A model generated the notes under the pieces. The model saw only the letters and a list, made by a program, of their open reading frames with translations, was not told where the DNA came from and ran no database searches. From Escherichia phage vB_EcoM_JNE01: DNA of 64,000 nucleotides. Shown one piece after another: positions 1 through 64,000 of this stretch. Made by a program: the position numbers and the translations under genes. Within the stretch, counting starts at the first letter, position 1. The number at the start of each line of letters is the position of its first letter. The stretch is from the sequence record OR670491. One strand, 5' to 3'.

Positions 1-15
1 ATAACTAATGAAGAG

Positions 16-750
16 GTGAATAATCGAATTTCAGAAAAAATGAAAAAACTAAATATCAATGAATATGAAATTGTAGAATATAACAGTACTAGGAGCATGG
101 TTGAATATACAGTTGATGATATTTCATATACAACTAGTTACGATAAGATTATGCATCCAACTTGGAAAGGTAATCCAAGATATACAAAAGAAAGAATAAT
201 AAAATTGTCGAAAAAATATTGCAAGGGTAAAAAATTTCAATTTAATAAAATAATTGGTAATGTTAAAGGAATTAATACTATCATTGAATTAGAACTTGAA
301 AATGGTATGTTTATATATCCAAAATTTATACAATTAAAAGGAGGTTCTGACTTTAATACATCCACTGATGGTAAGATTTTAACAGAAATAATTTATCCTT
401 TGTTCGACAATTATATCACACAAAAACGTTTTGAAAATTGTAGAAATCCTGAAACTGGATACTTGTTGCCATATGATTTGTATGTTCCAGAATTTAATTT
501 ATTATTAGAAAAAGATGGAGTGCAACATTACAATCCAACAGCATATTTTAATAAAACATATGAATCATATTTGAAATTGAGAGAGAGAGATGAATTTAAA
601 AACAAATATGCCATATCAAATGGTTATAATTTCATGCGAATAGCAGATTATGAAGATCATGAAAAAATATTGAAATCTTTCCTTAAACTCATTGAAGAGA
701 ATCCAGGAAAGCAAATCGTGCAGATCTATGGTGAAGTACAAATTATCTAA
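16..750 (+). CDS. hypothetical protein (frame open to window start; may be 5' partial)
   Basis: 244-aa ORF from GTG; no in-frame stop upstream to position 1; followed by terminator/promoter hairpin at 757-790. Confidence 0.5.
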   Translation: MNNRISEKMKKLNINEYEIVEYNSTRSMVEYTVDDISYTTSYDKIMHPTWKGNPRYTKERIIKLSKKYCKGKKFQFNKIIGNVKGINTIIELELENGMFIYPKFIQLKGGSDFNTSTDGKILTEIIYPLFDNYITQKRFENCRNPETGYLLPYDLYVPEFNLLLEKDGVQHYNPTAYFNKTYESYLKLRERDEFKNKYAISNGYNFMRIADYEDHEKILKSFLKLIEENPGKQIVQIYGEVQII

Positions 751-760
751 AACAAAAGGG

Positions 761-790
761 TTGACACTAGTCAGCCCTTTTTGCTATAAT
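761..790 (+). promoter_or_regulatory. sigma70-like promoter (TTGACA-18-TATAAT) with -35 inside an inverted repeat
   Basis: TTGACA 761-766, TATAAT 785-790; AGGGTTGAC/GTCAGCCCT dyad; same module recurs at 31033, 35061, 38336, 41086. Confidence 0.55.
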
Positions 791-818
791 CATTTCATCA
801 ACTCAAGAGGATAAAGAC

Positions 819-1592
819 ATGACCCGTACAGAGAAAGCAATCCAAATCGAAAAGAACTTCAACAGCATGATGGCAGCTTTGGAATGTTTACTTGATACCC
901 AAGCTAATTCAATCAATTCCCTGATTGTATCTGGTAAAGGTGGTGTTGGTAAAACTTACAACGTTGACCAGCGTTTACAGAAAGCTGATGATAACTTTGA
1001 AATCGACTACAAAAAGATCAGCGGTAAAGTAACCACTATGGGTTTGTACGAAGCACTGTATCGTTCACGTCATGCCGCTTCAGTACTGTTACTTGATGAC
1101 GTTGATATCTTCAGTGATGAAACTAACATTGACTTGCTCAAAGCAGTGTTGGACACGTCGGAGAAGCGGGTTGTATCTTATGCAACTTCTGGTAAGTACC
1201 TGGAGCAGCAGGGTATTCCTAAGCAGTTTGAATTCCGTGGGAAGGTAATCTTCCTGACGAACAAAAACCTGTCACAGATTGCTAAAGGTAAAAGCAGTTT
1301 AGCACCACACATTGATGCACTGATTACTCGTAGTATCTTTGTTGACCTACAACTGTTCACCAACGAAGAAGTCATGATTCACATTGAGAACATCATGAAC
1401 AAGACTAACATTCTTGAGAACAATGGTGTTAATAAAAATGGTTGTAAAGCAATCCTGAACTGGATGCTGAACAACGAAGAAAACCTGCGTTCACCTTCAC
1501 TGCGTATGCCGTGCCTGATTGCTGGTTTGTACAACAAATTCCCGTATGATTGGGAATCAATGGCAGAAAACATGTTCCTGGAAAAGAACTAA
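819..1592 (+). CDS. P-loop NTPase (Walker A GKGGVGKT, Walker B LLLDDVD)
   Basis: 257-aa ORF, SD AGAGGA before ATG; Walker A/B motifs read directly in the translation. Confidence 0.7.
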   Translation: MTRTEKAIQIEKNFNSMMAALECLLDTQANSINSLIVSGKGGVGKTYNVDQRLQKADDNFEIDYKKISGKVTTMGLYEALYRSRHAASVLLLDDVDIFSDETNIDLLKAVLDTSEKRVVSYATSGKYLEQQGIPKQFEFRGKVIFLTNKNLSQIAKGKSSLAPHIDALITRSIFVDLQLFTNEEVMIHIENIMNKTNILENNGVNKNGCKAILNWMLNNEENLRSPSLRMPCLIAGLYNKFPYDWESMAENMFLEKN

Positions 1593-1595
1593 TAC

Positions 1596-6934: not shown

Positions 6935-6968
6935 GCCAAAAAGGAAAAGCCAGTACTTGAGTACTGGC
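6935..6968 (-). terminator. rho-independent terminator
   Basis: GCCAGTACTCAAGTACTGGC hairpin plus T-run on minus strand. Confidence 0.6.
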
Positions 6969-18315: not shown

Positions 18316-18990
18316 ATGAAACTCAATAATTACAGTAAACAATACCTAAAGCATTTTAAGTACCTCAAAAGCATTAAGGCTGAATCTATCACCAGCAGCT
18401 ACGTTTACAGCCCTAATGTACTAAAACAATTAAAGTACAAGAAAGAAAAAGTATCAAAGAACCTCAAAAAGTTTCTTAAGCACAAAGACGCAAAGATTCA
18501 GTACTTGAACATTAAAAACGATCATCCAGTACTAAGCCTCAATACAAGTCTAAAGAATCTGGATAACTCTTCATTTATGCTTGAGTTCAATATAAATGAA
18601 AATACTCCAGCGGTTTTTACAATTGCGTATAATAAAGCACAAATCTTTTTAGGTGCAAAAACCGCACTTAAACTCAGTAAAGCACAATTCTGTTTAGGTG
18701 ACCAGTACTACGTAGGTAGTGTACATATTGAACTCGAAAAAGATATGTACTTCGGTAGTACCCACGATAATCCAGAACATAAAGATACTATTGACTTCTT
18801 CAGGAATCTCCCTAAAGAGTATTCAGAAGATGAAATGTTCCAGTGGAGTACTATTATTAAAGACCCACATCTTTGCTACGAAGTGTATAAGAAAGTACAA
18901 GGGATTAAACAAATGATTAAAGAAAATAAAAAAATGTACCAACTCTTGCAGTTCTTAACCGGAGAAAATCTAATTGTTCAAAGACCATAA
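18316..18990 (+). CDS. hypothetical protein with FQ-S motif (EDEMFQWSTIIKD)
   Basis: 224-aa ORF inserted in the YY array. Confidence 0.55.
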   Translation: MKLNNYSKQYLKHFKYLKSIKAESITSSYVYSPNVLKQLKYKKEKVSKNLKKFLKHKDAKIQYLNIKNDHPVLSLNTSLKNLDNSSFMLEFNINENTPAVFTIAYNKAQIFLGAKTALKLSKAQFCLGDQYYVGSVHIELEKDMYFGSTHDNPEHKDTIDFFRNLPKEYSEDEMFQWSTIIKDPHLCYEVYKKVQGIKQMIKENKKMYQLLQFLTGENLIVQRP

Positions 18991-19168
18991 AGAGTACTAC
19001 AGAAATCAACTCCCAAAGGAATGGCAAATAACATTAGAAACTAACCTAGCACAGATATATACCCAGAAGTTTCTTGCTATGACATGGGAGCACTGCATTG
19101 AGTCAGTACTGAATTCTTCAAATGAATCACAATATCTCAATACTCTTTTACTTGTATATAAATTCTAA
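18974..19168 (+). CDS. YY-family small protein (TTG start)
   Basis: TTG directly after in-frame TAA, SD GGAGAA 8 nt upstream; HKEYY ... QYLNTLLLVYKF. Confidence 0.45.
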   Translation: MFKDHKEYYRNQLPKEWQITLETNLAQIYTQKFLAMTWEHCIESVLNSSNESQYLNTLLLVYKF

Positions 19169-19181
19169 AAAGGAATAACAA

Positions 19182-19388
19182 ATGCAATTCCATGAACATA
19201 TGGAGTACTACAGAAAACAACTACCAGAACCTTTATCGATGATAATCGGTTCCAGAAGTTTAATAAGTAATCCCAATTTTCATATGCGTAGTCACTATAA
19301 ATGTACTGCTTCAATTTGTAATGGAACTGCTCACAATGAACCGCACCAGCATCTATACCAAATCCTTAAACTAATATATCAGTACTAA
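19182..19388 (+). CDS. YY-family small protein
   Basis: HMEYY ... LYQILKLIYQY. Confidence 0.55.
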   Translation: MQFHEHMEYYRKQLPEPLSMIIGSRSLISNPNFHMRSHYKCTASICNGTAHNEPHQHLYQILKLIYQY

Positions 19389-19391
19389 ATT

Positions 19392-19583
19392 ATGCACGAA
19401 TATAAAGAGTACTACAAAGATAAAATCCCAAAGTTTCTACAATACCAAATACCAGATGCTGCACTAGGAATAAATGATGTGCACACCTGTACAAGATTCT
19501 ATCAATGCACTGAAAGTTTTCTGGTAGATGATTATGACCAATGCAAGGTGTACTATGTTATTTCACTAATATATAGGTACTAA
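19392..19583 (+). CDS. YY-family small protein
   Basis: MHEYKEYY ... VYYVISLIYRY. Confidence 0.55.
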   Translation: MHEYKEYYKDKIPKFLQYQIPDAALGINDVHTCTRFYQCTESFLVDDYDQCKVYYVISLIYRY

Positions 19584-19586
19584 ATC

Positions 19587-19766
19587 ATGCACAACGATTT
19601 CTATATACAAAAACTTATCGACGCTGGCCTGGAAAGCTTCCCGATAAATCCTGTACAAACAAAAGGATTGCACTGGTACTTCATCCCCTGTACTAAAGCA
19701 TGTATAAACCCCAGCAATTACAAGGATCTATACCACAATATATTAATACTCGCATTGAGGTACTAA
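19587..19766 (+). CDS. YY-family small protein (59 aa, absent from ORF track)
   Basis: hand-translated MHNDFYIQK...LYHNILILALRY. Confidence 0.45.
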   Translation: MHNDFYIQKLIDAGLESFPINPVQTKGLHWYFIPCTKACINPSNYKDLYHNILILALRY

Positions 19767-19769
19767 ATT

Positions 19770-19952
19770 ATGCAAGAACACTTGGAGTACTACAGAAGCC
19801 ATCTCCCAAAGAAGGCACAAAGAAACTTCGACCAACAATATATAAACCAAAAGAATCAGTTCTATAATGCATTCTATTCGTCTATGAAAACTATTGCTAT
19901 ACAAGGCAAAGACCCGTACTATAGCATCCTGAACATCATCTTCAAGTACTAA
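19770..19952 (+). CDS. YY-family small protein
   Basis: MQEHLEYY ... YYSILNIIFKY. Confidence 0.55.
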   Translation: MQEHLEYYRSHLPKKAQRNFDQQYINQKNQFYNAFYSSMKTIAIQGKDPYYSILNIIFKY

Positions 19953-19955
19953 AGC

Positions 19956-20141
19956 ATGTACAGAGACTTCTATATAAGTAAACTTAATCCTGTACTACAA
20001 ACTCGTATTCCTCCAGCGAAATTTATCCTCAAAACAAAAGCACAAAGGTATGAGTTCAAAAAGTGTACAAAAGAAATACTCAGTACTAAAAGTAATAAGA
20101 ACATATACTATCAAGTACTCGTCCTTATATTCAAGTACTAA
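19956..20141 (+). CDS. YY-family small protein
   Basis: MYRDFY ... YYQVLVLIFKY. Confidence 0.55.
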   Translation: MYRDFYISKLNPVLQTRIPPAKFILKTKAQRYEFKKCTKEILSTKSNKNIYYQVLVLIFKY

Positions 20142-20161
20142 AGTACTAAAGGAATAAACAT

Positions 20162-20356
20162 ATGCAACACCAGCACAAATTGTACTACACGCAATTTCTT
20201 AATCAGCAACTACAACAATTTATACCTAATGAACCATTACCATATGATCATCCCCTGGGTGCACGCGTTTTCAAAAGAACTATTAATGAACTATTGAGTA
20301 CTACCGACGACGATTCCCTGTACTACTGCTTAATTAAACTTATATATAGGCACTAA
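20162..20356 (+). CDS. YY-family small protein
   Basis: KLYY ... YYCLIKLIYRH; SD AAGGA. Confidence 0.55.
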   Translation: MQHQHKLYYTQFLNQQLQQFIPNEPLPYDHPLGARVFKRTINELLSTTDDDSLYYCLIKLIYRH

Positions 20357-20357
20357 T

Positions 20358-20552: not shown

Positions 20553-20561
20553 GGCACTAAC

Positions 20562-52618: not shown

Positions 52619-53094
52619 TGAGTTTAGAAAGTGCACTGGAATTAGGTCGAAGGATAGTTCCTATTATTAATTTCTACCAAAAGAATTTATATAAGCTAGG
52701 ATACTTCAATGATGAAATCCTGACTCCAGAAGAACTGGAGTTGGGATACATGTGTATGTTAGCCTTTGGTCAGTATCATACTAGTGGTGATTGTGATATG
52801 AACCTTAGTGGTGGATATCTTGATTTCGAAAGGAATAGTGCACTCCAATTCGTAGACAGAAATGGTTCAGTACAACGTATTGAACCGGAAGAGTTTAAAG
52901 AATTTAGTACTATGACAGAGGATATGTATTTCCAGTTAAGTACTCTTTACAGTTCAGAAGCACTTGATGCAATGATACTTTTTGATTACTTATATGGCAG
53001 TGATGTTCCTAACTTCGTGTATCTAAGTCTTACTCGCTTGGATATTCTGGAAGAATTATATGAACAGGATTTATTAAAACAGGTACATATGTAA
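52618..53094 (+). CDS. FQ-S family protein, type B (starts MSLESALE)
   Basis: TAATG overlap; motif MYFQLSTLYS. Confidence 0.6.
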   Translation: MSLESALELGRRIVPIINFYQKNLYKLGYFNDEILTPEELELGYMCMLAFGQYHTSGDCDMNLSGGYLDFERNSALQFVDRNGSVQRIEPEEFKEFSTMTEDMYFQLSTLYSSEALDAMILFDYLYGSDVPNFVYLSLTRLDILEELYEQDLLKQVHM

Positions 53095-53447
53095 TGGAAT
53101 TTGAATTTGTAATATCGACACATAGTTTCAAGTTACAGCGTCAGTACTTTTGTAATTTAAACAAAGGTGATATGATACACGCAGGGAATGAATATCTTCA
53201 TTACAGTAGTGGTAAATTTACATTTGTTAATTACGATAATTATCTTAATCCACATGAAGAGATGCTGGATTATACAGTACTACCAGATGGTGAACTATTT
53301 CAGCAGTCCCTGGTATTTGATAAGAAGTACATTTGTTCTTTTGAGGATGTTTGTGCTTTGCAGAAGATCATAAAAGAATACGACAAGAGTATTTCTGGGC
53401 GTGATATAATAATTAAGGAATATAAGTTCAACCTAGAGGATATGTAA
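53094..53447 (+). CDS. FQ-S family protein, type A (ends KFNLEDM)
   Basis: TAATG overlap; motif ELFQQSLVFD. Confidence 0.6.
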   Translation: MEFEFVISTHSFKLQRQYFCNLNKGDMIHAGNEYLHYSSGKFTFVNYDNYLNPHEEMLDYTVLPDGELFQQSLVFDKKYICSFEDVCALQKIIKEYDKSISGRDIIIKEYKFNLEDM

Positions 53448-53884
53448 TGAGTTTAGAAAGAGCATTAGAAATTGCTGAGTTGATTGATTTGTGCAGAACT
53501 AAAATCAAAACTGACTGCCTCAATGGATATCTATACCAGGAAGGCAATTCATATTTCCGAAGTTTATTTGATGAAAGTTCTGATAGTATTGAAATGTATG
53601 ATGATAAGTTAGATACCAGATATACTGTTGAATGCGATGTTAGTTTAGAAGATAATTACATATTCTTTTGTAAGAACTCTAGTATTGCATTAAGTTATAA
53701 TGAGCTTCTCCCTTATTCAGTACTTGAAGGTAATTGGGGTAGTCCAGAATATTACTTCCAGCAAAGTACTATCTACAGTGAAGAAGTTCTTGATAAACTA
53801 GTCATTTTGTGGTACTTTAATAACACTAGTCCCAATAACTTCTACATGGACTTGGACATATTAGATGTAATGAAAGGGGGATAA
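53447..53884 (+). CDS. FQ-S family protein, type B (starts MSLERALE)
   Basis: TAATG overlap; motif YYFQQSTIYS. Confidence 0.6.
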   Translation: MSLERALEIAELIDLCRTKIKTDCLNGYLYQEGNSYFRSLFDESSDSIEMYDDKLDTRYTVECDVSLEDNYIFFCKNSSIALSYNELLPYSVLEGNWGSPEYYFQQSTIYSEEVLDKLVILWYFNNTSPNNFYMDLDILDVMKGG

Positions 53885-53886
53885 AC

Positions 53887-54366
53887 GTGTCATTTGAAAG
53901 TGCCTTTATGGAAGCCCAACGAATCCATGAGTACATGATTCGTATTATTAATGATGATAATCCAAATATAACAAAGTACTGTGATGCATCATGGACTGAG
54001 TACTACCTATGTACACCAGCACAAAAAAATTACATGTTGGATTCAAATACTCGTATTCTACATTTATGCCCTGGTAGTAATCACTTCTACTGTTGTCGTA
54101 CAGCAGAGCACAGTACTATGGAGTTCAGTAGGAGTAGTCCTATTATTTTTTATAACTGGAATGTAGAGGGTTCTAACTATACTGACTGTACACACCAGAT
54201 AGATGCAGAAGTACTGGATGAGCCGTGGGATTCTTCTGATTATTATTTTCAGATGAGCACTGTGTACGAAGAAGATGTACTTGACACTTTAGTACTGATG
54301 TGGTACTTTAAGCACAGAACAGATTATCCAGATTTCTATCTGGAGTACTTCCACGACATAGGCTAA
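53887..54366 (+). CDS. FQ-S family protein, type B (starts MSFESAFM)
   Basis: GTG start; motif YYFQMSTVYE. Confidence 0.55.
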   Translation: MSFESAFMEAQRIHEYMIRIINDDNPNITKYCDASWTEYYLCTPAQKNYMLDSNTRILHLCPGSNHFYCCRTAEHSTMEFSRSSPIIFYNWNVEGSNYTDCTHQIDAEVLDEPWDSSDYYFQMSTVYEEDVLDTLVLMWYFKHRTDYPDFYLEYFHDIG

Positions 54367-54375
54367 GAGGATTAT

Positions 54376-54924
54376 ATGGATTACACATTTAATGGTTTAG
54401 AGTACAGGCACTGTATTGCAATGGCTAAAGTACTGGAGTACGTTGTTACCAGATTGCAATGCAATGAATTTCTTAAGCGAAATATCTTATATCTAAATTC
54501 CGATGGTTACTTGTGCCATATTAATGATTTTGTTGACTTTGGTTGGGGCGTTCGTATTGACAAAGATACCATATCAAGAGCCGGATGCAGGGGTGCAGTT
54601 CTTACGCACTGTATTTGTTTTTCTCCTGATAGTAGATCTGTTATTATCAATCACGACAGTCAAAAATATTTTCTGGGTCTGGACAATGGAGATTTGGAAG
54701 CGTGGTTCTTCCAGAACATTTTAGTACTTGAACCTATGAAAGTACTATATATGGTAGTGTTTAATTATTTGTACAACATTAAATGCATAGATTCATTTGA
54801 TATAGAAATGAGTCTTATGCGTATTATCAATCAAATACCTGAACTCCAGCGTATTACAGAAGAACCGTACTTCAACGATTTCACAGAATTATATCGTATG
54901 CACAGCTTTGAAGGAGATGAATAA
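54376..54924 (+). CDS. FQ-S family protein (divergent)
   Basis: SD AGAGGA; motif AWFFQNILVL. Confidence 0.55.
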   Translation: MDYTFNGLEYRHCIAMAKVLEYVVTRLQCNEFLKRNILYLNSDGYLCHINDFVDFGWGVRIDKDTISRAGCRGAVLTHCICFSPDSRSVIINHDSQKYFLGLDNGDLEAWFFQNILVLEPMKVLYMVVFNYLYNIKCIDSFDIEMSLMRIINQIPELQRITEEPYFNDFTELYRMHSFEGDE

Positions 54925-55406
54925 TGTCATTTAAAGGAGCACTTGAAAAAGCTAATACTATTTTCGAGTACTATAAACTATTTCGTAATGGTGACTTGGA
55001 TGATCTTTTTCAATGCAGCGATTTTTCTAATTCATACTTTCATACCAATAGTGATGGTAAGACATGGATAGTATACAGTACTAGTGGATCACGTGAAACT
55101 ATTGAGTACTGCTGCAATCCAGACAGGGATTATATCTCGTACTGTCATAATTCTGAATATATTAATCTTGAGTTATGGACACATGATGACAGTACTTACA
55201 TGAAGACAACTGTTGATGGTGATGAGTTAAATGCCATGTACCAAGATTGGTTATCAGAAGATTATTACTTCCAGCAAAGTACTTTGCACAAGGAAATGTA
55301 TCTTGATGCTATGGTAGTTCTTTCTTATCTTCGTTCTAAGAATTTAAGTCCTTTTTATTTGAATTTAGGTTATCTTGAAGAAATCAAGAAGTCAATGCAA
55401 GGGTAA
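54924..55406 (+). CDS. FQ-S family protein, type B (starts MSFKGALE)
   Basis: TAATG overlap; motif YYFQQSTLHK. Confidence 0.6.
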   Translation: MSFKGALEKANTIFEYYKLFRNGDLDDLFQCSDFSNSYFHTNSDGKTWIVYSTSGSRETIEYCCNPDRDYISYCHNSEYINLELWTHDDSTYMKTTVDGDELNAMYQDWLSEDYYFQQSTLHKEMYLDAMVVLSYLRSKNLSPFYLNLGYLEEIKKSMQG

Positions 55407-55409
55407 TCA

Positions 55410-55757
55410 ATGAAAACTGAAATAGATGTAACTAACTTTTCGTACCACGGTACACTGTATTGTATTTTTAAACTCAAGAACAAAGATGTATCAATTCGTG
55501 CTCTTTATAATATTTGTACTACCGAAACTGAATACGATTTGTACATAGTTAAAGATGAACGTGGTGAGCGTGGTAGGATTCCTAATTACGCTGAATGTTC
55601 ATACAGGGATGAATATGAAGCTTTTATGTTCCAGGAATCATTAGTATGGGAGAAGGATGTTGATTTCTTCTTAGTAAAAGAAATCCAAGAGTACTTCCAA
55701 CGTAATCACGAAAAGTTTATAAATGATGATTCCAAATTTACTTTAACACTAGGATAA
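55410..55757 (+). CDS. FQ-S family protein, type A
   Basis: motif FMFQESLVWE. Confidence 0.6.
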   Translation: MKTEIDVTNFSYHGTLYCIFKLKNKDVSIRALYNICTTETEYDLYIVKDERGERGRIPNYAECSYRDEYEAFMFQESLVWEKDVDFFLVKEIQEYFQRNHEKFINDDSKFTLTLG

Positions 55758-55760
55758 TTT

Positions 55761-56153
55761 ATGACATTCGAAGATTCACAAAGAATTGTAAGTAAATGTA
55801 TGGAATTAATAAAAGAATTAAAAGAAGTAACAGAATATGATCTATCATTTGCTGAACAAAATGAATTCAAGATTGATGGTTCTTTTTACTACAATCCCCT
55901 TTGGGATAAAAAAATCACATTCTTCTCAAAAGAGGGTTATAAAACAGATTATCCCCTAGAGCCAGAGCACGATCCTAGTACTGAAGAAGGTTTCTTTCAG
56001 TTGAGTTTACTTTACAATGATGATATAGTTCTAATGTACGCGATGTTCGATGCGTTCAAAAAGAGCGATTACGAAGAAATTTTCTTCCCTAATTATCGTT
56101 ACCGTGTTGAACTAACTGGGATGGTGAAATGCAAAGTCAAAGTGGAGGAATAG
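55761..56153 (+). CDS. FQ-S family protein, type B-like
   Basis: motif GFFQLSLLYN. Confidence 0.6.
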   Translation: MTFEDSQRIVSKCMELIKELKEVTEYDLSFAEQNEFKIDGSFYYNPLWDKKITFFSKEGYKTDYPLEPEHDPSTEEGFFQLSLLYNDDIVLMYAMFDAFKKSDYEEIFFPNYRYRVELTGMVKCKVKVEE

Positions 56154-56154
56154 T

Positions 56155-56466
56155 GTGACACACGATGAATATAAAAGAGTCATTACTGTGCAGAGTTCAC
56201 TCCTTGATATAACTAAGGAGGATGCTGCATATGCACTTGTTTGTAAGAATATTCTTTCTGATTACCAAGATTTCTTTACGAAGAAATACACTGCTCGTTC
56301 TGTTTTGTTCACGGTGTACTTGGTAGGGGAAGAACAAATCCAAGAAATGAAAATAAACGAGTACTGTATAAATTTACACGCGATATTCTTCAGAGTAGGT
56401 AAAAACGGTTCTAACTCATACGCTGCCAGATGTTTCAGTACTGGATACGTTGAATTACTCCCATAG
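56155..56466 (+). CDS. hypothetical protein
   Basis: GTG start; 3' end contains promoter 56469-56496. Confidence 0.45.
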   Translation: MTHDEYKRVITVQSSLLDITKEDAAYALVCKNILSDYQDFFTKKYTARSVLFTVYLVGEEQIQEMKINEYCINLHAIFFRVGKNGSNSYAARCFSTGYVELLP

Positions 56467-56468
56467 GA

Positions 56469-56496
56469 TTGACACTTGGGAGTTTTGTGCTATAAT
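56469..56496 (+). promoter_or_regulatory. sigma70-like promoter (TTGACA-16-TATAAT)
   Basis: TTGACA 56469-56474, TATAAT 56491-56496, SD AGAGG, ATG 56513. Confidence 0.5.
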
Positions 56497-56512
56497 ATTT
56501 TTAGAGGTACTT

Positions 56513-56824
56513 ATGACAACATATACAGTTGAGGTTAGCAGTTACGGGACGTACACGTACAGGGCAGGTGTAGTAGGTAAATTAGATCAGATCCTTGCAT
56601 ACGATGCATTTGAAGATTTCTGGTACATTCCATATCCTAATGAACGCAAATACGCTGATATCAGTGAAATCTTTAAGATGAATGAAGAAGAGTTGTTTCA
56701 ATTCTCATTAGTATGGGAACATAAAATCCCAATGGAAGTCGTTCTTGCACTGAATCCTATCATCATGAATTTAGTACTGAATTGTGAAACGCCCCGCAAC
56801 ATGAAGATTACATTTGAGGTGTAA
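56513..56824 (+). CDS. FQ-S family protein, type A
   Basis: start moved to MTTYTVEV; motif ELFQFSLVWE. Confidence 0.55.
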   Translation: MTTYTVEVSSYGTYTYRAGVVGKLDQILAYDAFEDFWYIPYPNERKYADISEIFKMNEEELFQFSLVWEHKIPMEVVLALNPIIMNLVLNCETPRNMKITFEV

Positions 56825-57295
56825 ATGATTAATTTAGAGAATAGCAGGACTTTAGCGAATAAGGTTATTACAATTGTTCAGTACTACCATACAAACAGGC
56901 ATCTTCTTACTGAGAATGTTCTGGTAGTTAGTAGGAGTGAAGATTTCGATGTAGATGCCTTAAAGGTATGTGAATGTATTTCTGAAGATAATTTAACAGA
57001 ATACAGTGCTCGTTATCAGTACATGTGCTACAATAAGATGAGACGCTTGCACATTTCGAGTGACATGTACCCAACTAAAGATGAATTCGAAGAATTTGAT
57101 ATCACCAAAGATGAGTGCATGTATGCCTGTACTGAAGAAGGTTTCTTTCAATTAGAGACAATGTATTACCCTGAAGTTGTTGAAATTATTGCAGCTTTTG
57201 GTTTCATTTATAATAGCGATATTAACGTTGACTTCTATCTGGACTTAGATTATCTGGATTATCTTTATGCTGAGGCTACTAAAAATGAACATTAA
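56825..57295 (+). CDS. FQ-S family protein, type B
   Basis: TAA-ATG abutting; motif GFFQLETMYY. Confidence 0.6.
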   Translation: MINLENSRTLANKVITIVQYYHTNRHLLTENVLVVSRSEDFDVDALKVCECISEDNLTEYSARYQYMCYNKMRRLHISSDMYPTKDEFEEFDITKDECMYACTEEGFFQLETMYYPEVVEIIAAFGFIYNSDINVDFYLDLDYLDYLYAEATKNEH

Positions 57296-57821
57296 TATTA
57301 ACAATCCAGAATCACTTGAGTACTTTTATTCTTTTATTACTAAAGCAGTTCCTTTGATCAAACAATCATTTCTCGAAGGTACTGAAGATAAACTTCTGAA
57401 TTCTAAGTACACTATTGATGGCACAGTCCAAGAAAAATCTTCAGCGTTTCAGTCATGTGAAGTGCGTAATGTATTTTGTAAAAGCGAAGTGCCTGTTATC
57501 ATTGGGACAAGTGTGTCTAATTCTTTTATGACAGTAGATGATGATGGTAAAATTCTACGTTTCGAGTACACAAGAAAAAGTAATGTCTTTGAGTTATTCA
57601 CTAATACAAAATACAAGTTCAGTTCTTCGTGTAACGCATTTCTTATTCCTGAATATAATTACACAGAATTTGAAGAACAATGTTTCCAGTTGCGTTGTAC
57701 CGATGAGAACTGTGAACTAATGATTTTCTTAATGAAACTAAGAATGGTTATGAATAATACATTTGCAATGTACTTACCGTTCTTAAAAGTAAATGAAGTA
57801 TTCAATGAAGGTGTACTGTGA
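57285..57821 (+). CDS. FQ-S family protein (divergent)
   Basis: start moved to MNININNPESLEY; motif QCFQLRCTDE. Confidence 0.5.
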   Translation: MNININNPESLEYFYSFITKAVPLIKQSFLEGTEDKLLNSKYTIDGTVQEKSSAFQSCEVRNVFCKSEVPVIIGTSVSNSFMTVDDDGKILRFEYTRKSNVFELFTNTKYKFSSSCNAFLIPEYNYTEFEEQCFQLRCTDENCELMIFLMKLRMVMNNTFAMYLPFLKVNEVFNEGVL

Positions 57822-58027
57822 GTAAAATAAAGTACATCAATGATGATTACATTATGAAGAACGCTATTAAGTACTTCAGTAATTCTGCCAATCAGGGTGA
57901 CAATCTTAAGATGGTGGAGATTCGTGTACTCATATACTTAGGAACACAACACCAGGAAAAATTGATTGCAGAATATCTTGATTCACTAAAACGACATGTA
58001 GAGAAAATTTATTATGGAATACAATGA
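57818..58027 (+). CDS. LGT-family small protein
   Basis: GTGA overlap; motif LGTQHQEKL. Confidence 0.5.
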   Translation: MSKIKYINDDYIMKNAIKYFSNSANQGDNLKMVEIRVLIYLGTQHQEKLIAEYLDSLKRHVEKIYYGIQ

Positions 58028-58514
58028 AGTTTTGAAGTTATACGAAGATATTTGTACTGCAATTAAAGTTGTGGAACTTGATACAAAGAATCCAAATCCC
58101 AAGTTACATACACAGATAGTTAGTCCAGTAGCTTCCTTCCGTAAGATATTAATAAAATCAGACTACGAGATGGAACACTTAATGTTTGTACATGATGAGA
58201 AGTTGACTAATATTGTACCGAACTCTCATTTCGAACAAGCAATGCATACGTTCATGTCATTCCACAAGGACAGTACTAAAATCATGTTACACAGTGATAT
58301 ATACACTGAGTATGATATTGTTCCTGTGGAGTTGAATGCTGACAGTTATTTTCAGTACAGTTTTGTGTACGACGAGACGCTACTGATGATGCAGTTTCTT
58401 TCTAATCTATACATGCAGAACGATGACCTTCCGAACTTCATTAAGATTAATATTTCATATCTCAAGATGCCACAGTACTTAAAGATTAAGGAATACTACA
58501 GTGATTTACTCTGA
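58014..58514 (+). CDS. FQ-S family protein
   Basis: motif SYFQYSFVYD. Confidence 0.55.
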   Translation: MEYNEVLKLYEDICTAIKVVELDTKNPNPKLHTQIVSPVASFRKILIKSDYEMEHLMFVHDEKLTNIVPNSHFEQAMHTFMSFHKDSTKIMLHSDIYTEYDIVPVELNADSYFQYSFVYDETLLMMQFLSNLYMQNDDLPNFIKINISYLKMPQYLKIKEYYSDLL

Positions 58515-59043
58515 ATACAATTCGTTAATTGAAACTATTGAAAAGTCCAGACGTGCTCATACGTTAATGGTTAAGTACGATATTAATAAGTATAAGAAAT
58601 TTAGTATTCAAGAACTTGAACTCGGTGAAAATACAAGGAAATTTCTTTCTTATAGTGGTAGAATGTTTATCTCTCTTAATTTCTTTGAGAATCCAGATTT
58701 GGAATTGATGCGTTCTATGGTTACATCAATGGACGATAAAATACAAAGTATCTATTTCCGTAATGGCAAGAAGATGGAAATCCATGTGTACTATCAGTGT
58801 GATGACCGTTTATCATATGATATTACAAACTATCCACAATTCAGTACTTCAGACGATGCAGCTTTATTCCAGTACAGTACTCTGTACAGTAATTTTGATT
58901 TCATGTGCTTGTACATAATCAATGCCCTACGAGAACTGGACTATAACAATTACAACATCAACTGCTCTGTAATGCAGGACGATGGTTTCGATGAAGGTAT
59001 TGATGAGTTACTTACATATCTAAATGAGTACATTAATGAATAA
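58501..59043 (+). CDS. FQ-S family protein
   Basis: GTG start; motif ALFQYSTLYS. Confidence 0.5.
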   Translation: MIYSEYNSLIETIEKSRRAHTLMVKYDINKYKKFSIQELELGENTRKFLSYSGRMFISLNFFENPDLELMRSMVTSMDDKIQSIYFRNGKKMEIHVYYQCDDRLSYDITNYPQFSTSDDAALFQYSTLYSNFDFMCLYIINALRELDYNNYNINCSVMQDDGFDEGIDELLTYLNEYINE

Positions 59044-59096
59044 AATAGAAATAAAATCTTTTTGTAATAGTTTTATAAAAGATCTGGAGTACTAAT

Positions 59097-59465
59097 ATGA
59101 AACAGGTATTTCGTTATACGTATTACACTACAAAAAAGCAATTGGTTTCTTTATTTGGTTTCAAGACTTTGAAGACAAATGCATATCAAAGGGTATTCAT
59201 TGGCATTGATGATAATGGTTTCTTTCAATTACTGTCCAATGAAAGTGATAAGTCCTATACTATCCCTGACACTACTGTACTGGGAGAAGGTGAATTATTC
59301 CAGTTGAGTACTGTATGGGATGATTCAGAATATGCATGTAATTTTGAGAATTTTGTTCAGTACCAGAAAATATTACGAACTGATTTTGAGAACTACCCAG
59401 TGAAAGTATTAAGTACTGGAAACGAACAATACAGACAAAAAGTGGTTGAACTTGATGCGTATTGA
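59097..59465 (+). CDS. FQ-S family protein, type A
   Basis: SD GGAG; motif ELFQLSTVWD. Confidence 0.6.
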   Translation: MKQVFRYTYYTTKKQLVSLFGFKTLKTNAYQRVFIGIDDNGFFQLLSNESDKSYTIPDTTVLGEGELFQLSTVWDDSEYACNFENFVQYQKILRTDFENYPVKVLSTGNEQYRQKVVELDAY

Positions 59466-59988
59466 AACAATAAGAACACACAGTGCAGAAACATTCTTTG
59501 ATATTTGGCTTGTCCAGGAGCTAATGACTATTGGTTCTATTCCTACGAAATTATTAAATTACACACATAACAATAGTAATTCTGTACCACACCAATCAAT
59601 TACCGATAGTAGTGGTGTGGTGTACATGCGTAGTAGTACTAATATTAATAATATAAAAAGTGCATACAATAATTCATGTGGCTTCTTTACTTATAAATCC
59701 GATACTCACCCATCATTCAGTACTATATTACAGGGGAATGTAATTTATCTTGACATGTTGAAACCACAAGAGTATACTGACGATGTAATTAATGAAATTA
59801 GTACTGCAACAGATCCGAATCTGGTAATTGCTTCTATGGTATTCTCTTACATGAGATACAGTGCTATGCCGTGTACGTGGGCTTCAGCACCTGATCTCAG
59901 GAGATATTTAAATTCACTCCTAGGCACAAACTTCAGAGAACATTTAAATGCACGACGATTTATACAAAATAAACTACAGATTGAGTAG
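59455..59988 (+). CDS. hypothetical protein with C-terminal LGT-like motif
   Basis: start moved to MRIETIRT; C-terminal LGTNFREH. Confidence 0.5.
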   Translation: MRIETIRTHSAETFFDIWLVQELMTIGSIPTKLLNYTHNNSNSVPHQSITDSSGVVYMRSSTNINNIKSAYNNSCGFFTYKSDTHPSFSTILQGNVIYLDMLKPQEYTDDVINEISTATDPNLVIASMVFSYMRYSAMPCTWASAPDLRRYLNSLLGTNFREHLNARRFIQNKLQIE

Positions 59989-60301
59989 AAAAGAACTTAT
60001 ACTCAGGATTGGTTATGATGCACGTAAAAAATGTCACAATAATATCATGTACAACAGTACTGAACGTTTTCTTTTTTGTGTTGGATTTACAAGGTACTTC
60101 ATTGATGACTTTACGGAGTTAGGTGAAGGGGAACTATTCCAGAACATGTGTGTTCTTCCTGATTACATTAATGTAGATATATATGACTTAGTAAAGTATC
60201 AGAAAGCATTAAAGTACTTATACAATAACTATCCATGTACACCAGATCCTAAAACTATAGGTTATGAGGTTTATCACTTACCAGGAAATCTAATATGTTA
60301 G
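59948..60301 (+). CDS. FQ-S family protein, type A
   Basis: motif ELFQNMCVLP; start uncertain (41-nt overlap). Confidence 0.45.
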   Translation: MHDDLYKINYRLSRKELILRIGYDARKKCHNNIMYNSTERFLFCVGFTRYFIDDFTELGEGELFQNMCVLPDYINVDIYDLVKYQKALKYLYNNYPCTPDPKTIGYEVYHLPGNLIC

Positions 60302-60879
60302 ATAAAGATAAAAAACTACTGTCCCCAAGAAATAATCATTTAAAATTAGATACATTAGAAGAAGCTATCCAATGCGGTAAACAGTTAGTTGAACTAATCA
60401 ATGCAATTGAAAATGATGAAATACCACAGATTCAACGCTGTGAAGAAGAATTTGAGGGTGATGGCGATCCTTACTATTACAATTTTAGAAAGGAAGATGC
60501 TAGAACATCTGAATACGAAAGTGCACTATATACAGTACAAGGTGATTACGACACAAGTGAATACGATCCATGTTTTCAGGGTGGATTCCTCAGTACTAGT
60601 TTAAAATCAGATATAATTGTAGTTGACTGGTATGTACACAGAGATGGTAGTTTAGAGGATAATAATGAACTTCGTCTCGATGCATCAGGTATTGAATTTA
60701 CTGAAGAGTCATTCTTCATGCACAGTACATTGTACTCTCAGTACTGCACTGGTGTTATGGTACTGGCGAAGTACTTAAACCAAGAACTCAAAAAACCTAT
60801 CTATCTGGACTTAGATATGCTAGAACAAGCATACAAGTACCACCTTCAAGCCAAATCAAAAAAGGCATCTAAAAAATAG
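60295..60879 (+). CDS. FQ-S family protein (divergent)
   Basis: motif SFFMHSTLYS. Confidence 0.55.
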   Translation: MLDKDKKLLSPRNNHLKLDTLEEAIQCGKQLVELINAIENDEIPQIQRCEEEFEGDGDPYYYNFRKEDARTSEYESALYTVQGDYDTSEYDPCFQGGFLSTSLKSDIIVVDWYVHRDGSLEDNNELRLDASGIEFTEESFFMHSTLYSQYCTGVMVLAKYLNQELKKPIYLDLDMLEQAYKYHLQAKSKKASKK

Positions 60880-60909
60880 TTGACCTTCCTCCTTCTCTTG
60901 TGATATAAT
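60880..60909 (+). promoter_or_regulatory. sigma70-like promoter (TTGACC-18-TATAAT)
   Basis: TTGACC 60880-60885, TATAAT 60904-60909, SD GGAG, ATG 60944. Confidence 0.5.
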
Positions 60910-60943
60910 TCTTTTAATATCTTTTTAATGGAGTTATATCACA

Positions 60944-61417
60944 ATGAGCACTCATTTTCTTTGCACTTATCAATCAGCATTTGCTTTAGCTCAAAAAATC
61001 GAATTCCTTTACCATACATTCATTTCCTTCGAGGATGATGAACACATCCAAGTAGGTTCAGAAAGACTTGATTTCAAGGAAAGTCATAACCAAATTATAT
61101 ATAAAAAATGTTTGTTATTCAGTGTAAATGAAAATTCAGTGAATATCAGGACAAATATAGACCCTTATGTTTGTTATTCCCCAACAATAAAGAGATATAA
61201 ATTATCTACTGCAAGGGGTTATTCAAATGATTATGAAGCTGTTGACATTTTCAGTGAAGAAGATTACTTCATGAATTTGTGTTTGTTCCCTGAACTGGAC
61301 GTATATAATCTTACTATCATTTCATACTTCAAGTTAAAGGGCATGGGTTCATTCTATATGGATCTGGATTGCGTTAATGAATTGTATGAGCATTTTTCTG
61401 GAGTACATAATGTATAA
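60944..61417 (+). CDS. FQ-S family protein (divergent)
   Basis: motif DYFMNLCLFP. Confidence 0.55.
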   Translation: MSTHFLCTYQSAFALAQKIEFLYHTFISFEDDEHIQVGSERLDFKESHNQIIYKKCLLFSVNENSVNIRTNIDPYVCYSPTIKRYKLSTARGYSNDYEAVDIFSEEDYFMNLCLFPELDVYNLTIISYFKLKGMGSFYMDLDCVNELYEHFSGVHNV

Positions 61418-61898
61418 GAATGTAATGATGACCGACTACGATTCAGTACTGAAATTTGCAGAAATCGTAACCAAAATACACTTTGAAGCTTACACTGATA
61501 ATCCATTCGGTGGTTTATTTTATAAGAAATTCGACTCATACGAACGACCAATCCTCGCTGATCTAAATTATGTAAATGATGAGAATGCAATGGAACGATA
61601 TTGTGAGTACTTCAAAGATAGTGATTTCAGTTTAAAAAGTGCATATATGTCATACGCACCTGGAACTGATATATCCATTAATGATGGCTATGATAAAGTC
61701 CTATACAAATCTGAAGATTTACCAAAGGATTATAGTGAGGATTCATATTTTCAGTACTTATGTATACATGATATCAATACTGTGAATGTATTATTCTTCT
61801 ATACTATTCTTCGTAAGAAATATCAGTTGACTAAATGTTTCTTTTTGGATTTTGAATTAATGTCCGATGCAGTACTGGAGTATCTCAATGCCGATTGA
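61410..61898 (+). CDS. FQ-S family protein
   Basis: start moved to MYKNVMMTDY; motif SYFQYLCIHD. Confidence 0.5.
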   Translation: MYKNVMMTDYDSVLKFAEIVTKIHFEAYTDNPFGGLFYKKFDSYERPILADLNYVNDENAMERYCEYFKDSDFSLKSAYMSYAPGTDISINDGYDKVLYKSEDLPKDYSEDSYFQYLCIHDINTVNVLFFYTILRKKYQLTKCFFLDFELMSDAVLEYLNAD

Positions 61899-62229
61899 AA
61901 TCGAGTTCATGGTTGATTCGGATTATGATTGTTTTATTATCCAGACTAAGTACAAAGATGACTTGTACTTAGTTTATATTCACGATAATTCACAGTTCTA
62001 TATGCATAGAAAAGTATCCAAAACATACACACAAGAAAAGAAAATCAAAAACTATACCAAACTAAGTACAGAAGAACTATTCCAAATGAGTTGTTCTGAC
62101 GACTATGATGTGCATTTGATAAAAGAATTACAATTACCGCTTCTTAAATTCCAAAAAGAATGTAATCCTGTATTTGCAAAGCACTTTGGTATCCCGTGGG
62201 ATTATACAACATTTATGTACGAAGGATAA
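61888..62229 (+). CDS. FQ-S family protein, type A
   Basis: start moved to MPIEIEF with SD GGAG; motif ELFQMSCSDD. Confidence 0.5.
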   Translation: MPIEIEFMVDSDYDCFIIQTKYKDDLYLVYIHDNSQFYMHRKVSKTYTQEKKIKNYTKLSTEELFQMSCSDDYDVHLIKELQLPLLKFQKECNPVFAKHFGIPWDYTTFMYEG

Positions 62230-62232
62230 GAT

Positions 62233-62628
62233 ATGAAAACAATGCATGTAATTTTACGTGTTGAAACTGCTTTACGTGTTGATACTTCTCTTAAATATGC
62301 CAATAATTCATATGATTCAGTAGTATATGAACGTTGGGTTAAGCTTGACAAGACGAACACTTTACGCTATATTTCTAATACAAATAAATTCGATGTGAAC
62401 TCCGAGAACGTTCCTAGGCTCGCTCACATGAGTTCTGAAGAGGTATTTCAGTACTCCTTAGTGCACAAGCATAGTGCTGATTTGAAGGTTCTGAAGGCCG
62501 TTCAGGAGGCTCTATTGGAGAATAACAGGACTCGTTACGTTACAATTGAGGTGGATGCACCGGATTATATGTTAGATGATGACGAATTCTATGAGAAACA
62601 TTTCCCTAAGAAACAATGGAGGGATTAA
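62233..62628 (+). CDS. FQ-S family protein
   Basis: motif EVFQYSLVHK. Confidence 0.6.
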   Translation: MKTMHVILRVETALRVDTSLKYANNSYDSVVYERWVKLDKTNTLRYISNTNKFDVNSENVPRLAHMSSEEVFQYSLVHKHSADLKVLKAVQEALLENNRTRYVTIEVDAPDYMLDDDEFYEKHFPKKQWRD

Positions 62629-63096
62629 ATGCGAAAGTACAATGATGCTATGCGTTTCGCACGTGATAGTCTAAATGCACTCACGTACCTTGTACTGAAC
62701 GAAGATAAACTACCAAAAGAGTTTGACGTTCGTTATCCAGCCCGTAACGTTATGGTTACATGGCACGGTGCTTATAGTGTTAGTGTTTCGTCGGCAGGAG
62801 ATCCATCACCTTATGTAGCTTCCATATTTGAAAAAGCCAGAACAAACTATGTGTACTTCGCTAAGAACACTAATACTGTTAATTTCATCGCTAAAGACCG
62901 TAACTTGTGCAAGATGCAAGTACTGACAGAATTAAGTCCAGAGAATTTCTTTCAACAGAGTCTTCTTTATCCAGAAGATGCAGTACTTGCATTGTTTATG
63001 ATTTCGTACTATAATTTGAACAGTACTATCGGTTCGTTCTCCTACGAGGTTGCTGACATGAAGCACTTCATTAAAACACTGAAGGGATTAAAATGA
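62629..63096 (+). CDS. FQ-S family protein
   Basis: TAA-ATG abutting; motif NFFQQSLLYP. Confidence 0.6.
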   Translation: MRKYNDAMRFARDSLNALTYLVLNEDKLPKEFDVRYPARNVMVTWHGAYSVSVSSAGDPSPYVASIFEKARTNYVYFAKNTNTVNFIAKDRNLCKMQVLTELSPENFFQQSLLYPEDAVLALFMISYYNLNSTIGSFSYEVADMKHFIKTLKGLK

Positions 63097-63638
63097 ATAT
63101 TGAAGGTATAGATAAAATTGTCCAAATGTACAAGTTCTTATTATATGCTCGTAAGAATATGGAAGCACATAAAATTTGGTTTGATGCACCTGATGATGAA
63201 TATATGTTGATTAGAAATATCGCTGCGGGTACTGATTTTTATGGAAAGGGTGATGGACTAATATTTACAATTCGCCCTGAAGTTCAGGGTGATCATAACC
63301 GACGAAACCCCAATAGTGCTTCACATTACAAGCACATACTACGCGATGATAATTTCTTCATTAGCTCAAGTGAAAGTGATTTATGTGATGATATTTTCAT
63401 TAGTTATTTGGATGAACCTGTTATAATCAAAATGCCAAGTACTGAAGAAGAGGAATTTCAGTTCTCATTAATTCATGATGACAAGACTATGTTTATATAT
63501 TATCTACAGAAAGCATTGAAAGGTATTATACCAAATGATGTATGGGTTGGTGGTTATTATGATAGAATCATAAACTACGATTTCAGTACTGTACTAAGTC
63601 TCATTAACACTGATAAGATGAAATATGGAAAATATTAA
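63093..63638 (+). CDS. FQ-S family protein
   Basis: ATGA overlap; motif EEFQFSLIHD. Confidence 0.6.
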   Translation: MNIEGIDKIVQMYKFLLYARKNMEAHKIWFDAPDDEYMLIRNIAAGTDFYGKGDGLIFTIRPEVQGDHNRRNPNSASHYKHILRDDNFFISSSESDLCDDIFISYLDEPVIIKMPSTEEEEFQFSLIHDDKTMFIYYLQKALKGIIPNDVWVGGYYDRIINYDFSTVLSLINTDKMKYGKY

Positions 63639-64000
63639 AACACCTAAGCATATTATTAAAGTACTTGAATTCATGTTAACTAAAGTACAAAAAACAATAG
63701 AGAATGGTATTAAAAAATCTATATACGTTAATGGAAAAGATTCTCTACTTATTATCCATCCTGATGGTCAATGCACTTTGCAGTACAATACTGACCGTAA
63801 AATCACTATGTTAAATGAAAACCTTCAGTACGTAAGTGATAGTGTTTCAAGGATTATCATCAGGGGTGATACATTCTTCCTATCTTCACCGAACTCAATG
63901 AAGTTGTATCCAGTCAACGATGTTATTGAATATGAGGATGCAGAAAAATATGATTTGACTGGTTTCAAGACCGAAGAAGGTCGCTTCATGTTAAGTACAC
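63625..64000 (+). CDS. hypothetical protein, 3' partial (runs off window end)
   Basis: ATG at 63625, frame open to position 64000; not in ORF track because no stop. Confidence 0.45.
   Translation, partial: MENIKTPKHIIKVLEFMLTKVQKTIENGIKKSIYVNGKDSLLIIHPDGQCTLQYNTDRKITMLNENLQYVSDSVSRIIIRGDTFFLSSPNSMKLYPVNDVIEYEDAEKYDLTGFKTEEGRFMLST

Follow-up and report, generated by a model that had tools for sequence, protein, structure and literature searches.

AGTACT as a highly iterated palindrome, probably selected at the DNA level, in RaK2-like jumbo phages

The recurrence of the palindrome AGTACT throughout the DNA of Escherichia phage vB_EcoM_JNE01 raises the question of what keeps one short word at such a density and on which level it is read. 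We addressed this question computationally on a stretch of 64,000 nucleotides from sequence record OR670491, hereafter the window, in which a first-pass annotation had called the hexamer pervasive and suggested it to be a recognition site for a DNA-binding or modifying protein, or a recombination substrate, besides its having a promoter role. Megablast placed the window within the jumbo coliphages of the genus Asteriusvirus (PBECO4, vB_Ec-M-J, fEgEco12, phAPEC6 and Sharanji), with a mosaic identity of 88-98% to these relatives and no single record covering the whole of it. The layout of the window and its block boundaries were inferred by homology with fEgEco12, whose genome ends have been determined experimentally and whose direct terminal repeats measure 20,993 bp (PMC13070987).

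AGTACT was counted 301 times in the window, against 22.4 +/- 4.6 in dinucleotide-preserving shuffles (maximum 35), which is ~14 times chance and makes it the commonest of all 4096 hexamers. Statistics against Markov backgrounds likewise found the hexamer enriched, the expectations being 22 (order 0-1), 56 (order 2), 120 (order 3) and 258 (order 4); the order-4 model alone nears the observed count because it already includes the enriched pentamers AGTAC and GTACT. The excess goes beyond what promoter and terminator copies explain, with the sites inside coding sequence remaining ~10-fold over expectation, and the word is indeed pervasive as had been claimed. At the same time, the window completely lacks 22 of the 64 palindromic hexamers, GGTACC, CGTACG, CTGCAG, GGATCC and GAGCTC among them, so that the usual signature of restriction avoidance stands beside the AGTACT excess. 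The one-mismatch neighbours of the hexamer are mostly mildly enriched (1.0-2.2x expected), most strongly at the outer positions, and AGGACT/AGTCCT is the only depleted one (0.42x).

The sites show a symmetric flank preference, with C at -1 in 130 of the 301 (43%) and G at +1 in 131 (44%), a depletion of C at +1, and weaker preferences for T at -3 and A at +3, which give the extended form (T)N(C)AGTACT(G)N(A). The word had been described as usually occurring as CAGTACTG; this form is found 59 times against 0.75 expected, and the C/G preference behind the description is real, but both flanks are present at only 59 of the 301 sites. Outside the terminal repeat, no flank information was detected past +/-1, which indicates that no longer repeat unit underlies the sites. 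A dispersed repeat or miniature mobile element, of the kind of repetitive extragenic palindromes (REP) or miniature inverted-repeat transposable elements (MITE), was ruled out, with no conserved sequence past the core, and the suggested recombination substrate found no support, there being no extended repeat context around the sites.

Using a strand-aware map of open reading frames, which covers 85% of the window, 200 of the 301 sites were located in coding sequence (3.66 per kb), bearing out the statement that the word is frequent there, and 101 in non-coding sequence, where the density (10.9 per kb) is three times as high; base composition predicts ~0.34 per kb. The coding sites are spread over the three reading frames as 79, 62 and 59. 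Shuffling synonymous codons within genes, with the proteins and codon usage kept, yielded 26, 22 and 17 sites, and none of 300 shuffles reached the observed counts, while shuffling codon order yielded 14, 8 and 6 per frame. That the observed counts exceed both shuffles indicates that the choice of codons and that of amino acids both favour AGTACT, in each frame and in both gene orientations. Because all three frames are used, the synonymous shuffles are exceeded and the C and G flanks are symmetric, the signal acts on the DNA. The AGTACT copies noted at the junctions of the 'YY' gene family were also confirmed, with GAGTACTAC encoding E-Y-Y and AAGTACTAA encoding K-Y-stop; across the YY paralogs the word appears as (E/Q)-Y-Y near N-termini and as K/Q/E-Y-stop at gene ends.

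The same abundance extends along the whole of a related genome. In the 353.7 kb of unique sequence of fEgEco12, AGTACT occurs 977 times against 119 expected (8x), again as the commonest hexamer, and all 5-kb bins but one hold 6-37 sites, those with late structural and replication genes included. The gaps between sites outside the terminal repeat are near-exponential (mean 390 bp, coefficient of variation 1.16), with neither regular spacing nor helical phasing. When the window was compared with fEgEco12, AGTACT was retained more often than other hexamers at each level of local identity: 62% vs 28% at 60-85% identity, 65% vs 53% at 85-92%, 94% vs 80% at 92-97%, and 99% vs 94% above 97%. This comparison supports the view that the sites are under purifying selection.

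Enrichment was furthermore found in phages of three other genera, namely RaK2 of Klebsiella (50 kb; 125 sites vs 17 expected), GAP32 of Cronobacter (30 kb; 64 vs 10) and fHe-Yen9-04 of Yersinia (58 vs 10), and the late structural genes of four genera are enriched ~6-fold. Across 13 orthologous structural genes (12.9 kb), fEgEco12, GAP32 and fHe-Yen9-04 carry 30, 27 and 24 sites, respectively, and any pair of genera has only 5-11 positions in common, a pattern in which the density is kept while individual sites turn over between genera. Controls proved to be depleted instead, namely PA5oct, the Pseudomonas relative (3 vs 17 expected), T4 (5 vs 15), the rV5-like phage FV3 (2 vs 12) and 50 kb sampled from E. 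coli K-12 (3 vs 12); relative to this K-12 sample the phage DNA carries the word ~50-80 times more densely. The enrichment is thus a property of the whole enterobacterial RaK2-like jumbo phage clade, a breadth that the first-pass annotation had missed. A literature search of incomplete coverage returned no description of AGTACT abundance for these phages, and it has apparently gone undescribed in phages so far. In PA5oct (100-150 kb), CTGCAG, TGCAGA and ATGCAG were observed at ~4-fold and TGCA at ~2-fold over expectation, and these TGCA-type words may constitute a weaker analogous word.

When IMG/VR was scanned twice by pattern, the hits comprised RaK2-like contigs, many chance matches, several tandem-repeat artefacts and two further groups of AGTACT-rich phages, here A and B. 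Contigs L162, L172, L173, L227, L239 and L109 were discarded for tandem or collagen-like repeats that produce a false local enrichment, and L146 reaches only 2.5-fold over its dinucleotide expectation. Both groups are phages of ~30-40 kb with a GC content of ~0.40 and no nucleotide similarity to fEgEco12. Group A encodes a single-subunit RNA polymerase, a portal and a large serine recombinase and had no match among public phages; a prophage in Mixta sp. BE291 encodes a portal protein 97% identical to that of group A, at a locus with 95 AGTACT in 22 kb and 19 copies of CAGTACTG vs 0.4 expected. Group B encodes a lambda-type large terminase, a portal and a capsid protein, and Pseudescherichia genomes encode a protein that matches one of its own at 100% identity. 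The prophage at that locus contains 47 AGTACT in 18 kb, and none are present in the 2.8 kb of host DNA next to it (GC 0.57); no group-B prophage was found in complete E. coli genomes. These temperate phages of Mixta and Pseudescherichia have a GC content of ~0.40, their hosts ~0.55.

In groups A and B alike, AGTACT is the commonest hexamer and has the flank preference seen in the jumbo phages: G occupies +1 at 41-51% of sites, C is depleted at that position, and A is favoured at +3 and +4. An identical word with an identical flank preference in unrelated phages implies one common reader. The two groups carry closely related large serine recombinases (phmmer E = 7e-124; L032:5761-7593 and L253:16222-18000) and also have a helicase in common. 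In the genome parts compared among the AGTACT-rich lineages, spanins, an HNH domain, a lysozyme domain, the helicase and the serine recombinase are held in common pairwise only. Every identified host of AGTACT-rich phages belongs to the Enterobacterales. The reader could be host-encoded, or phage-encoded and mobile.

The density of the word within the window is uneven, and one region strictly avoids AGTACT, a feature that had been missed before. This desert (47,963-52,906, plus strand) contains no AGTACT, and an oriented AGTACA takes its place; the homologous desert of fEgEco12 (29,016-37,647; 8.6 kb) also contains none, and a gap of such length under the genome-wide density has a probability of ~1e-10. 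The density of GTAC is not lowered in the desert (13 per kb). All 42 sense-strand copies of AGTAC there continue with A, C or G and none with T, and the complementary GTACT occurs once; in the rest of the window, 67% of AGTAC copies (301/449) continue with T. The half-site variants are otherwise balanced between the strands (170 vs 146), with the desert as the exception (42 vs 1). Its fEgEco12 counterpart behaves in the same way, with 51 AGTAC followed by A, C or G, 46 of which are AGTACA, vs one GTACT preceded by C, G or T. The oriented word is spread over the frames as 10, 15 and 16, and Ser-Thr pairs are spelled AGT followed by ACA, ACC or ACG and not AGT-ACT, which shows codon choice to follow the DNA word and not the reverse. 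The desert genes and their AGTACT-rich neighbours belong to one paralog superfamily. In the desert the palindrome is thus actively avoided and one oriented half kept, which hints at a polarity-sensitive process near the terminal repeat. A second site-free stretch (42,426-45,166), just past the inferred end of the terminal repeat, is poor in GTAC (3.3 per kb), and its counterpart in fEgEco12 (20,857-26,616) behaves likewise.

With regard to gene expression signals, AGTACT is present in 32 of 53 sigma-70-like promoter candidates, about 40 of which are strong. It occupies three registers there, at -27, -17 and -7/-8 relative to the start of the -10 hexamer, so it has no fixed promoter register. 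In nine cases the word and the -35 hexamer share one T, with which the former ends and the latter begins (AGTAC|TTGCAA), as at 24213..24245 on the plus strand, where AGTAC|TTGCAA and TATAAT are 16 nt apart; in five the word overlaps the 3' end of the -35 hexamer (TTGAC|AGTACT), as at 23539..23566 (plus strand); and in 19 it lies 7-8 nt before the -10 hexamer and supplies the TG ahead of it (AGTACTG|TATAAT or AGTACTGG|CATAAT). One promoter (26220..26252, plus strand) combines two sites, that at 26220 abutting the -35 hexamer and that at 26240 giving TG directly before TATAAT. The three registers look like accommodation rather than a dedicated contact with RNA polymerase, and AGTACT was rejected as a sigma-70 promoter element, having no fixed register and lying within genes, not upstream of them, at 200 of 301 sites. 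The first-pass annotation had placed the word in almost every promoter spacer, as the source of the extended -10 TG; the 32 of 53 candidates bear out an association with promoters, but the TG is supplied in only 19, and the promoter role is not that of a fixed element.

Its further assignment of AGTACT to most terminator stems holds for the minus-strand RCC1-like array (5.7-17 kb) and a few other terminators, but not for the early region, where the terminators are mostly built on unrelated stems lacking the word. In the array, nearly every RCC1-like paralog has a stem of the general form GCCAGTACT-NN-AGTACTGGC. The hairpin at 6949..6968 (minus strand), for instance, follows an RCC1-like gene, consists of two adjacent sites (GCCAGTACT-TG-AGTACTGGC) and is itself followed by a T-run, and equivalent two-site hairpins lie at 8204-8223, 9620-9639, 13368-13387 and 14620-14638 on the same strand. 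Inverted AGTACT pairs with a T-run form in total ~8 hairpins in the array plus one at ~4,425-4,458. In addition, AGTACTGAAT is often found between a stop codon and a terminator.

The candidate readers that we considered are methyltransferases and the host protein SlmA. In fEgEco12, g455 encodes a C5-cytosine methyltransferase closest to DNMT3 catalytic domains and M.HhaI, and g162 a Dam-family N6-adenine methyltransferase; RaK2 DNA has been reported to carry methylated CpG (PMC3622015). Group B encodes a putative gamma-class methyltransferase (L066:1387-2205 and L127:1422-2240, both minus strand; L253:10001-10822), annotated in GenBank as a putative N6-adenine enzyme, with 273 aa and FxGxG-like and NPPF motifs. 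It is matched at 60% amino-acid and 68% nucleotide identity in GAP32 (350,642-351,451) and Asteriusvirus ph0011 (334,476-335,279), and the occurrence of such a gene in both an unrelated prophage and RaK2-like phages suggests that it was passed horizontally between AGTACT-rich phages. Its own sequence is free of AGTACT, and searches of Pfam, NCBIfam and PDB gave no informative match from which the specificity of the enzyme could be deduced. It was rejected as a universal correlate of the word, being absent from fEgEco12 and the window and having 36%-identical homologues in AGTACT-poor rV5-like phages such as FV3. SlmA, the nucleoid-occlusion factor of E. coli, binds a 12-bp site, GTGAGTACTCAC, with AGTACT at its centre, and needs the hexamer to be preceded by G, T and a purine (PMC3020112). 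Among the 301 AGTACT cores of the window, these flanks gave no full site and one one-mismatch site, no more than chance.

In our view these findings are best explained if AGTACT is a highly iterated palindrome (HIP), that is, a short dyad-symmetric word that would be held at high density by selection on the DNA itself. Its likeliest reader would be a homodimeric, sequence-specific DNA-binding or DNA-modifying protein recognising (C)AGTACT(G), and the word would be placed wherever other constraints permit, through codon and amino-acid choice, in any of three sigma-70 registers, and in pairs within terminator stems. We put the probability that AGTACT is such a DNA-level, selected palindrome read by a dimeric protein at roughly 0.55. 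The data establish the enrichment, its symmetry and DNA-level nature, the conservation of the sites, and the occurrence of the word throughout the clade and in unrelated phages but not at this density in the controls; that the reader is a dimeric protein is what we infer, and the purpose of the reading, be it marking, organising or protecting phage DNA, is speculative. The recognition site first proposed for a DNA-binding or modifying protein thus agrees with the dyad symmetry, the DNA-level signal and the purifying selection. Since the density contrast between phage and host would confine any reader almost entirely to phage DNA, a 'self' tag is an attractive idea. A fuller version, in which a dyad-symmetric reader, host-encoded or mobile, recognises such a tag, the tag arose convergently in unrelated low-GC Enterobacterales phages (lytic jumbo myoviruses and at least two temperate phages), and the AGTACA domain next to the terminal repeat reflects a polarity-sensitive process, is tentative and falls short of being probable; if true, that process might be DNA entry, replication or nuclease protection.

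Several observations weigh against the selected, protein-read palindrome. The search turned up no reader protein for AGTACT, and the methyltransferases conserved in the clade were rejected as readers, their targets being CpG and probably GATC, neither of which lies within the word. A phmmer comparison of genome parts of the three AGTACT-rich lineages found zero genes common to all. The depletion of the word in the host rests on the single 50-kb sample of E. coli K-12, and the replacement of AGTACT by AGTACA in the desert is not predicted by a simple model of symmetric binding. The DNA of fEgEco12 is cut normally by ten restriction enzymes, ScaI not being among the ten (PMC13070987). Lastly, a neutral drive through biased repair could likewise raise both the abundance of the word and its apparent conservation.

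That drive, in which biased mismatch repair or gene conversion would turn near-cognate words into a functionless AGTACT, suits the Poisson-like spacing and the turnover of positions between genera, both of which fit a position-blind process. It does not suit the conservation well above background or the existence of a region of strict exclusion, which both indicate that selection can see the word, nor the lack of a single depleted source word, all neighbours but one being at or above expectation, and we hold it to be very unlikely. Repair also enters a methyltransferase-linked palindrome, as in Elhai's HIP model, where an orphan N6-adenine enzyme for AGTACT or GTAC would mark the sites, and selection for methyl-dependent functions, or methyl-directed repair, would create and maintain them. 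Such a model can draw on the cyanobacteria, where HIP abundance tracks the cognate methyltransferase (PMC4390886), on the putative 273-aa enzyme in the Pseudescherichia prophage, GAP32 and ph0011, and on the one-base variants, commonest at the outer positions (2.2x) as reported for HIP1, the cyanobacterial palindrome. We consider it doubtful, given that the gene is missing from the equally site-rich fEgEco12 and from the window, that 36%-identical homologues occur in AGTACT-depleted rV5-like phages, and that, contrary to the prediction of a repair drive, no near-cognate word is strongly depleted. A hijack of host SlmA would account for the identical core hexamer, and would suit the infection of Enterobacterales by the AGTACT-rich phages and the poverty of the Pseudomonas relative in the word; it is contradicted by the phage sites themselves, which prefer C at -1, lack the preceding G-T and include no full site among 301, and is scarcely conceivable.

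The remaining alternatives would move the signal from DNA binding to expression or to the gene product. If AGUACU were a self-complementary pairing, processing or protection site in every transcript, the palindrome would be present in all mRNAs whatever the gene orientation, and the site pairs that form terminator RNA hairpins, the frequent AGTACTGAAT between stop codon and terminator, and the sense-strand AGTACA of the desert, with its hint of strand-specific reading, would find a place. An RNA motif, however, would not require symmetry in its flanks, whereas the preferences for C at -1 and for G at +1 are equally strong; moreover, the densest copies lie in promoters and in a repeat region that looks untranscribed, and no positional bias relative to genes was seen beyond the non-coding excess, so that we regard an RNA-level signal as unlikely. 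A role as a building block of promoters (the extended -10 TG of AGTACTG) and terminators only would be in keeping with the higher non-coding density (10.9 vs 3.7 per kb in coding sequence), the 32 of 53 promoter candidates with a site and the two-site terminators of the RCC1-like array. It is contradicted by the 200 of 301 sites that are coding, in all frames and both orientations and ~10x over expectation, and is at odds with the ~6-fold enrichment in late structural genes of four genera, with three registers that are incompatible with one polymerase contact, and with early terminators that mostly lack the word; we give it very little credence. Hardly credible, too, is an artefact of protein motifs and codons, arising from Y-Y and S-T motifs of paralogs together with a preference for the codons AGT, ACT, GTA and TAC. 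The YY and FQxSTLY families do supply repeated contexts, and collagen-like and Ser/Thr-repeat genes in other viral contigs do mimic a local enrichment, but the equal use of the frames and the synonymous shuffle, which attains one third of the observed count and reaches it in 0 of 300 trials, contradict this origin, as do the enrichment of non-paralogous structural genes and the spelling of Ser-Thr in the desert, which avoids AGT-ACT.

In the layout deduced from fEgEco12, the first 17 kb of the window (1-17 kb) correspond to the right end of the unique region and include the RCC1-like array (5,697-16,965, minus strand) of nine tandem paralogs of 357-447 aa, which are annotated as 'chromosome condensation regulator' in related phage records. 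An array of small YY paralogs follows (17067..21022, plus strand; 33 AGTACT sites), and then a non-coding, repeat-rich region of 2 kb (21.0-23.1 kb) at the inferred left genome end. Within the latter (21,030-23,100) we observed ACGGCTAA in 4.4 copies (22,203-22,237), a 48-bp repeat, repeated GAATGATT words and a 66-bp tandem repeat of 2.5 copies with three AGTACT per unit (22,884-23,048). Rfam gave no match in this region, which may be a terminus, packaging or origin region. From 23 to 42.4 kb the window holds one collapsed copy of the terminal repeat, with small early genes that each have their own sigma-70 promoter. The block of early genes at 20950..42450 (plus strand), which is homologous to the fEgEco12 direct terminal repeat of ~21 kb, has the highest AGTACT density, 141 sites (6.7 per kb) lying between 21,000 and 42,000, and its ~40 strong sigma-70-type promoters all point rightward. 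The remainder (42.4-64 kb) is the first 21 kb of the unique region and contains the tightly packed paralog family phrog_9317/12674 (52906..64000, plus strand) with 53 coding AGTACT sites in all frames.

Other signals were observed in the early region. Many of its promoters (23,100-42,000) have a common downstream sequence, TATAATGTTTTACATC, as at 23,096-23,142 and 24,236-24,280, followed by a GC-rich hairpin such as GAGAGCGGGAACTCTTCCCGCT; together these form a conserved 5'-leader stem-loop ahead of the ribosome-binding site. A perfect 28-nt hairpin, AAAGGGATTGACTCCGGTCAGTCCCTTT, occurs four times (31,036-31,063; 35,054-35,081; 38,329-38,356; 41,079-41,106), with a -35-like TTGACT in its left arm and TATTAT 17 nt further on, and a promoter lying within such a stem could be a structural or regulatory switch. 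Megablast of 20,000-32,000 also matched Phapecoctavirus, Justusliebigvirus and seven 'Campylobacter phage' records at 60-90% identity, and the early region seems to have short segments in common with rV5-like phages. In a separate protein search, records named 'Campylobacter phage' again matched beside rV5-like coliphages, which suggests that they are mislabelled rV5-like phages.

A single palindrome that is the commonest word of a 350-kb genome implies that phage DNA is under a strong constraint not recognised so far. Four jumbo-phage genera and unrelated prophages of the same bacterial order carry the signal, and T4, rV5-like phages and the Pseudomonas relative are depleted in it. Its explanation could reveal a new phage way of telling its own DNA from the host's, and these phages offer a possible experimental handle on the 30-year-old question of iterated-palindrome function. 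The ~1000 ScaI sites per genome and the site-free island of 5-9 kb also matter for engineering and typing phages that are therapeutic candidates.

AGTACT is the recognition sequence of ScaI, and phages normally avoid short palindromes that are restriction targets; unlike such targets, it is the commonest word of the window, while 22 of 64 palindromic hexamers are absent. Other hyper-abundant short words are the uptake signal sequence (USS) of Pasteurellaceae and the DNA uptake sequence (DUS) of Neisseria, which occur in coding and non-coding DNA, often as inverted pairs that double as terminators; these are, however, non-palindromic, belong to competent bacteria and are maintained by biased uptake, whereas a phage genome has no uptake step. 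Chi and the FtsK-orienting polar sequences (KOPS) are oriented, over-represented octamers found genome-wide, whose density matters more than their exact position, but they are asymmetric and strand-skewed, and AGTACT is palindromic and without skew except for the AGTACA of the 5-kb desert. AGTACTG resembles the extended -10 element (TGn) in placing G just before the -10 hexamer in 19 promoters; it differs in that the TG of AGTACTG-TATAAT directly abuts TATAAT instead of lying one base away, in its two further registers, and in that the majority of sites lie outside promoters. The site of SlmA shares AGTACT as its central hexamer, but the flanks that SlmA requires are missing at the phage sites.

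The likeness is closest to HIP1 (GCGATCGC), the over-represented palindrome of cyanobacteria, whose function is still unknown (PMC5861425), and to the alternate HIPs of cyanobacterial chromosomes, whose abundance goes with a cognate methyltransferase (PMC4390886). Unlike HIP1, AGTACT is an AT-rich word of 6 bp (8 with its flanks) in phage genomes rather than cyanobacterial chromosomes; it is enriched 8-14-fold, compared with 15-300-fold, and by gap statistics its spacing is Poisson-like. For HIP1, a periodicity of 10-90 kb has been reported. AGTACT is also common to unrelated phages of one bacterial order, with a cognate methyltransferase that is only putative. Like HIP1, it is many-fold over-represented, both within and between genes and in all frames, it is conserved above background, and its one-base variants are biased to the outer positions (PMC5861425, PMC4390886). 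By this analogy, cyanobacterial HIP1 appears to be the closest known analogue of AGTACT.

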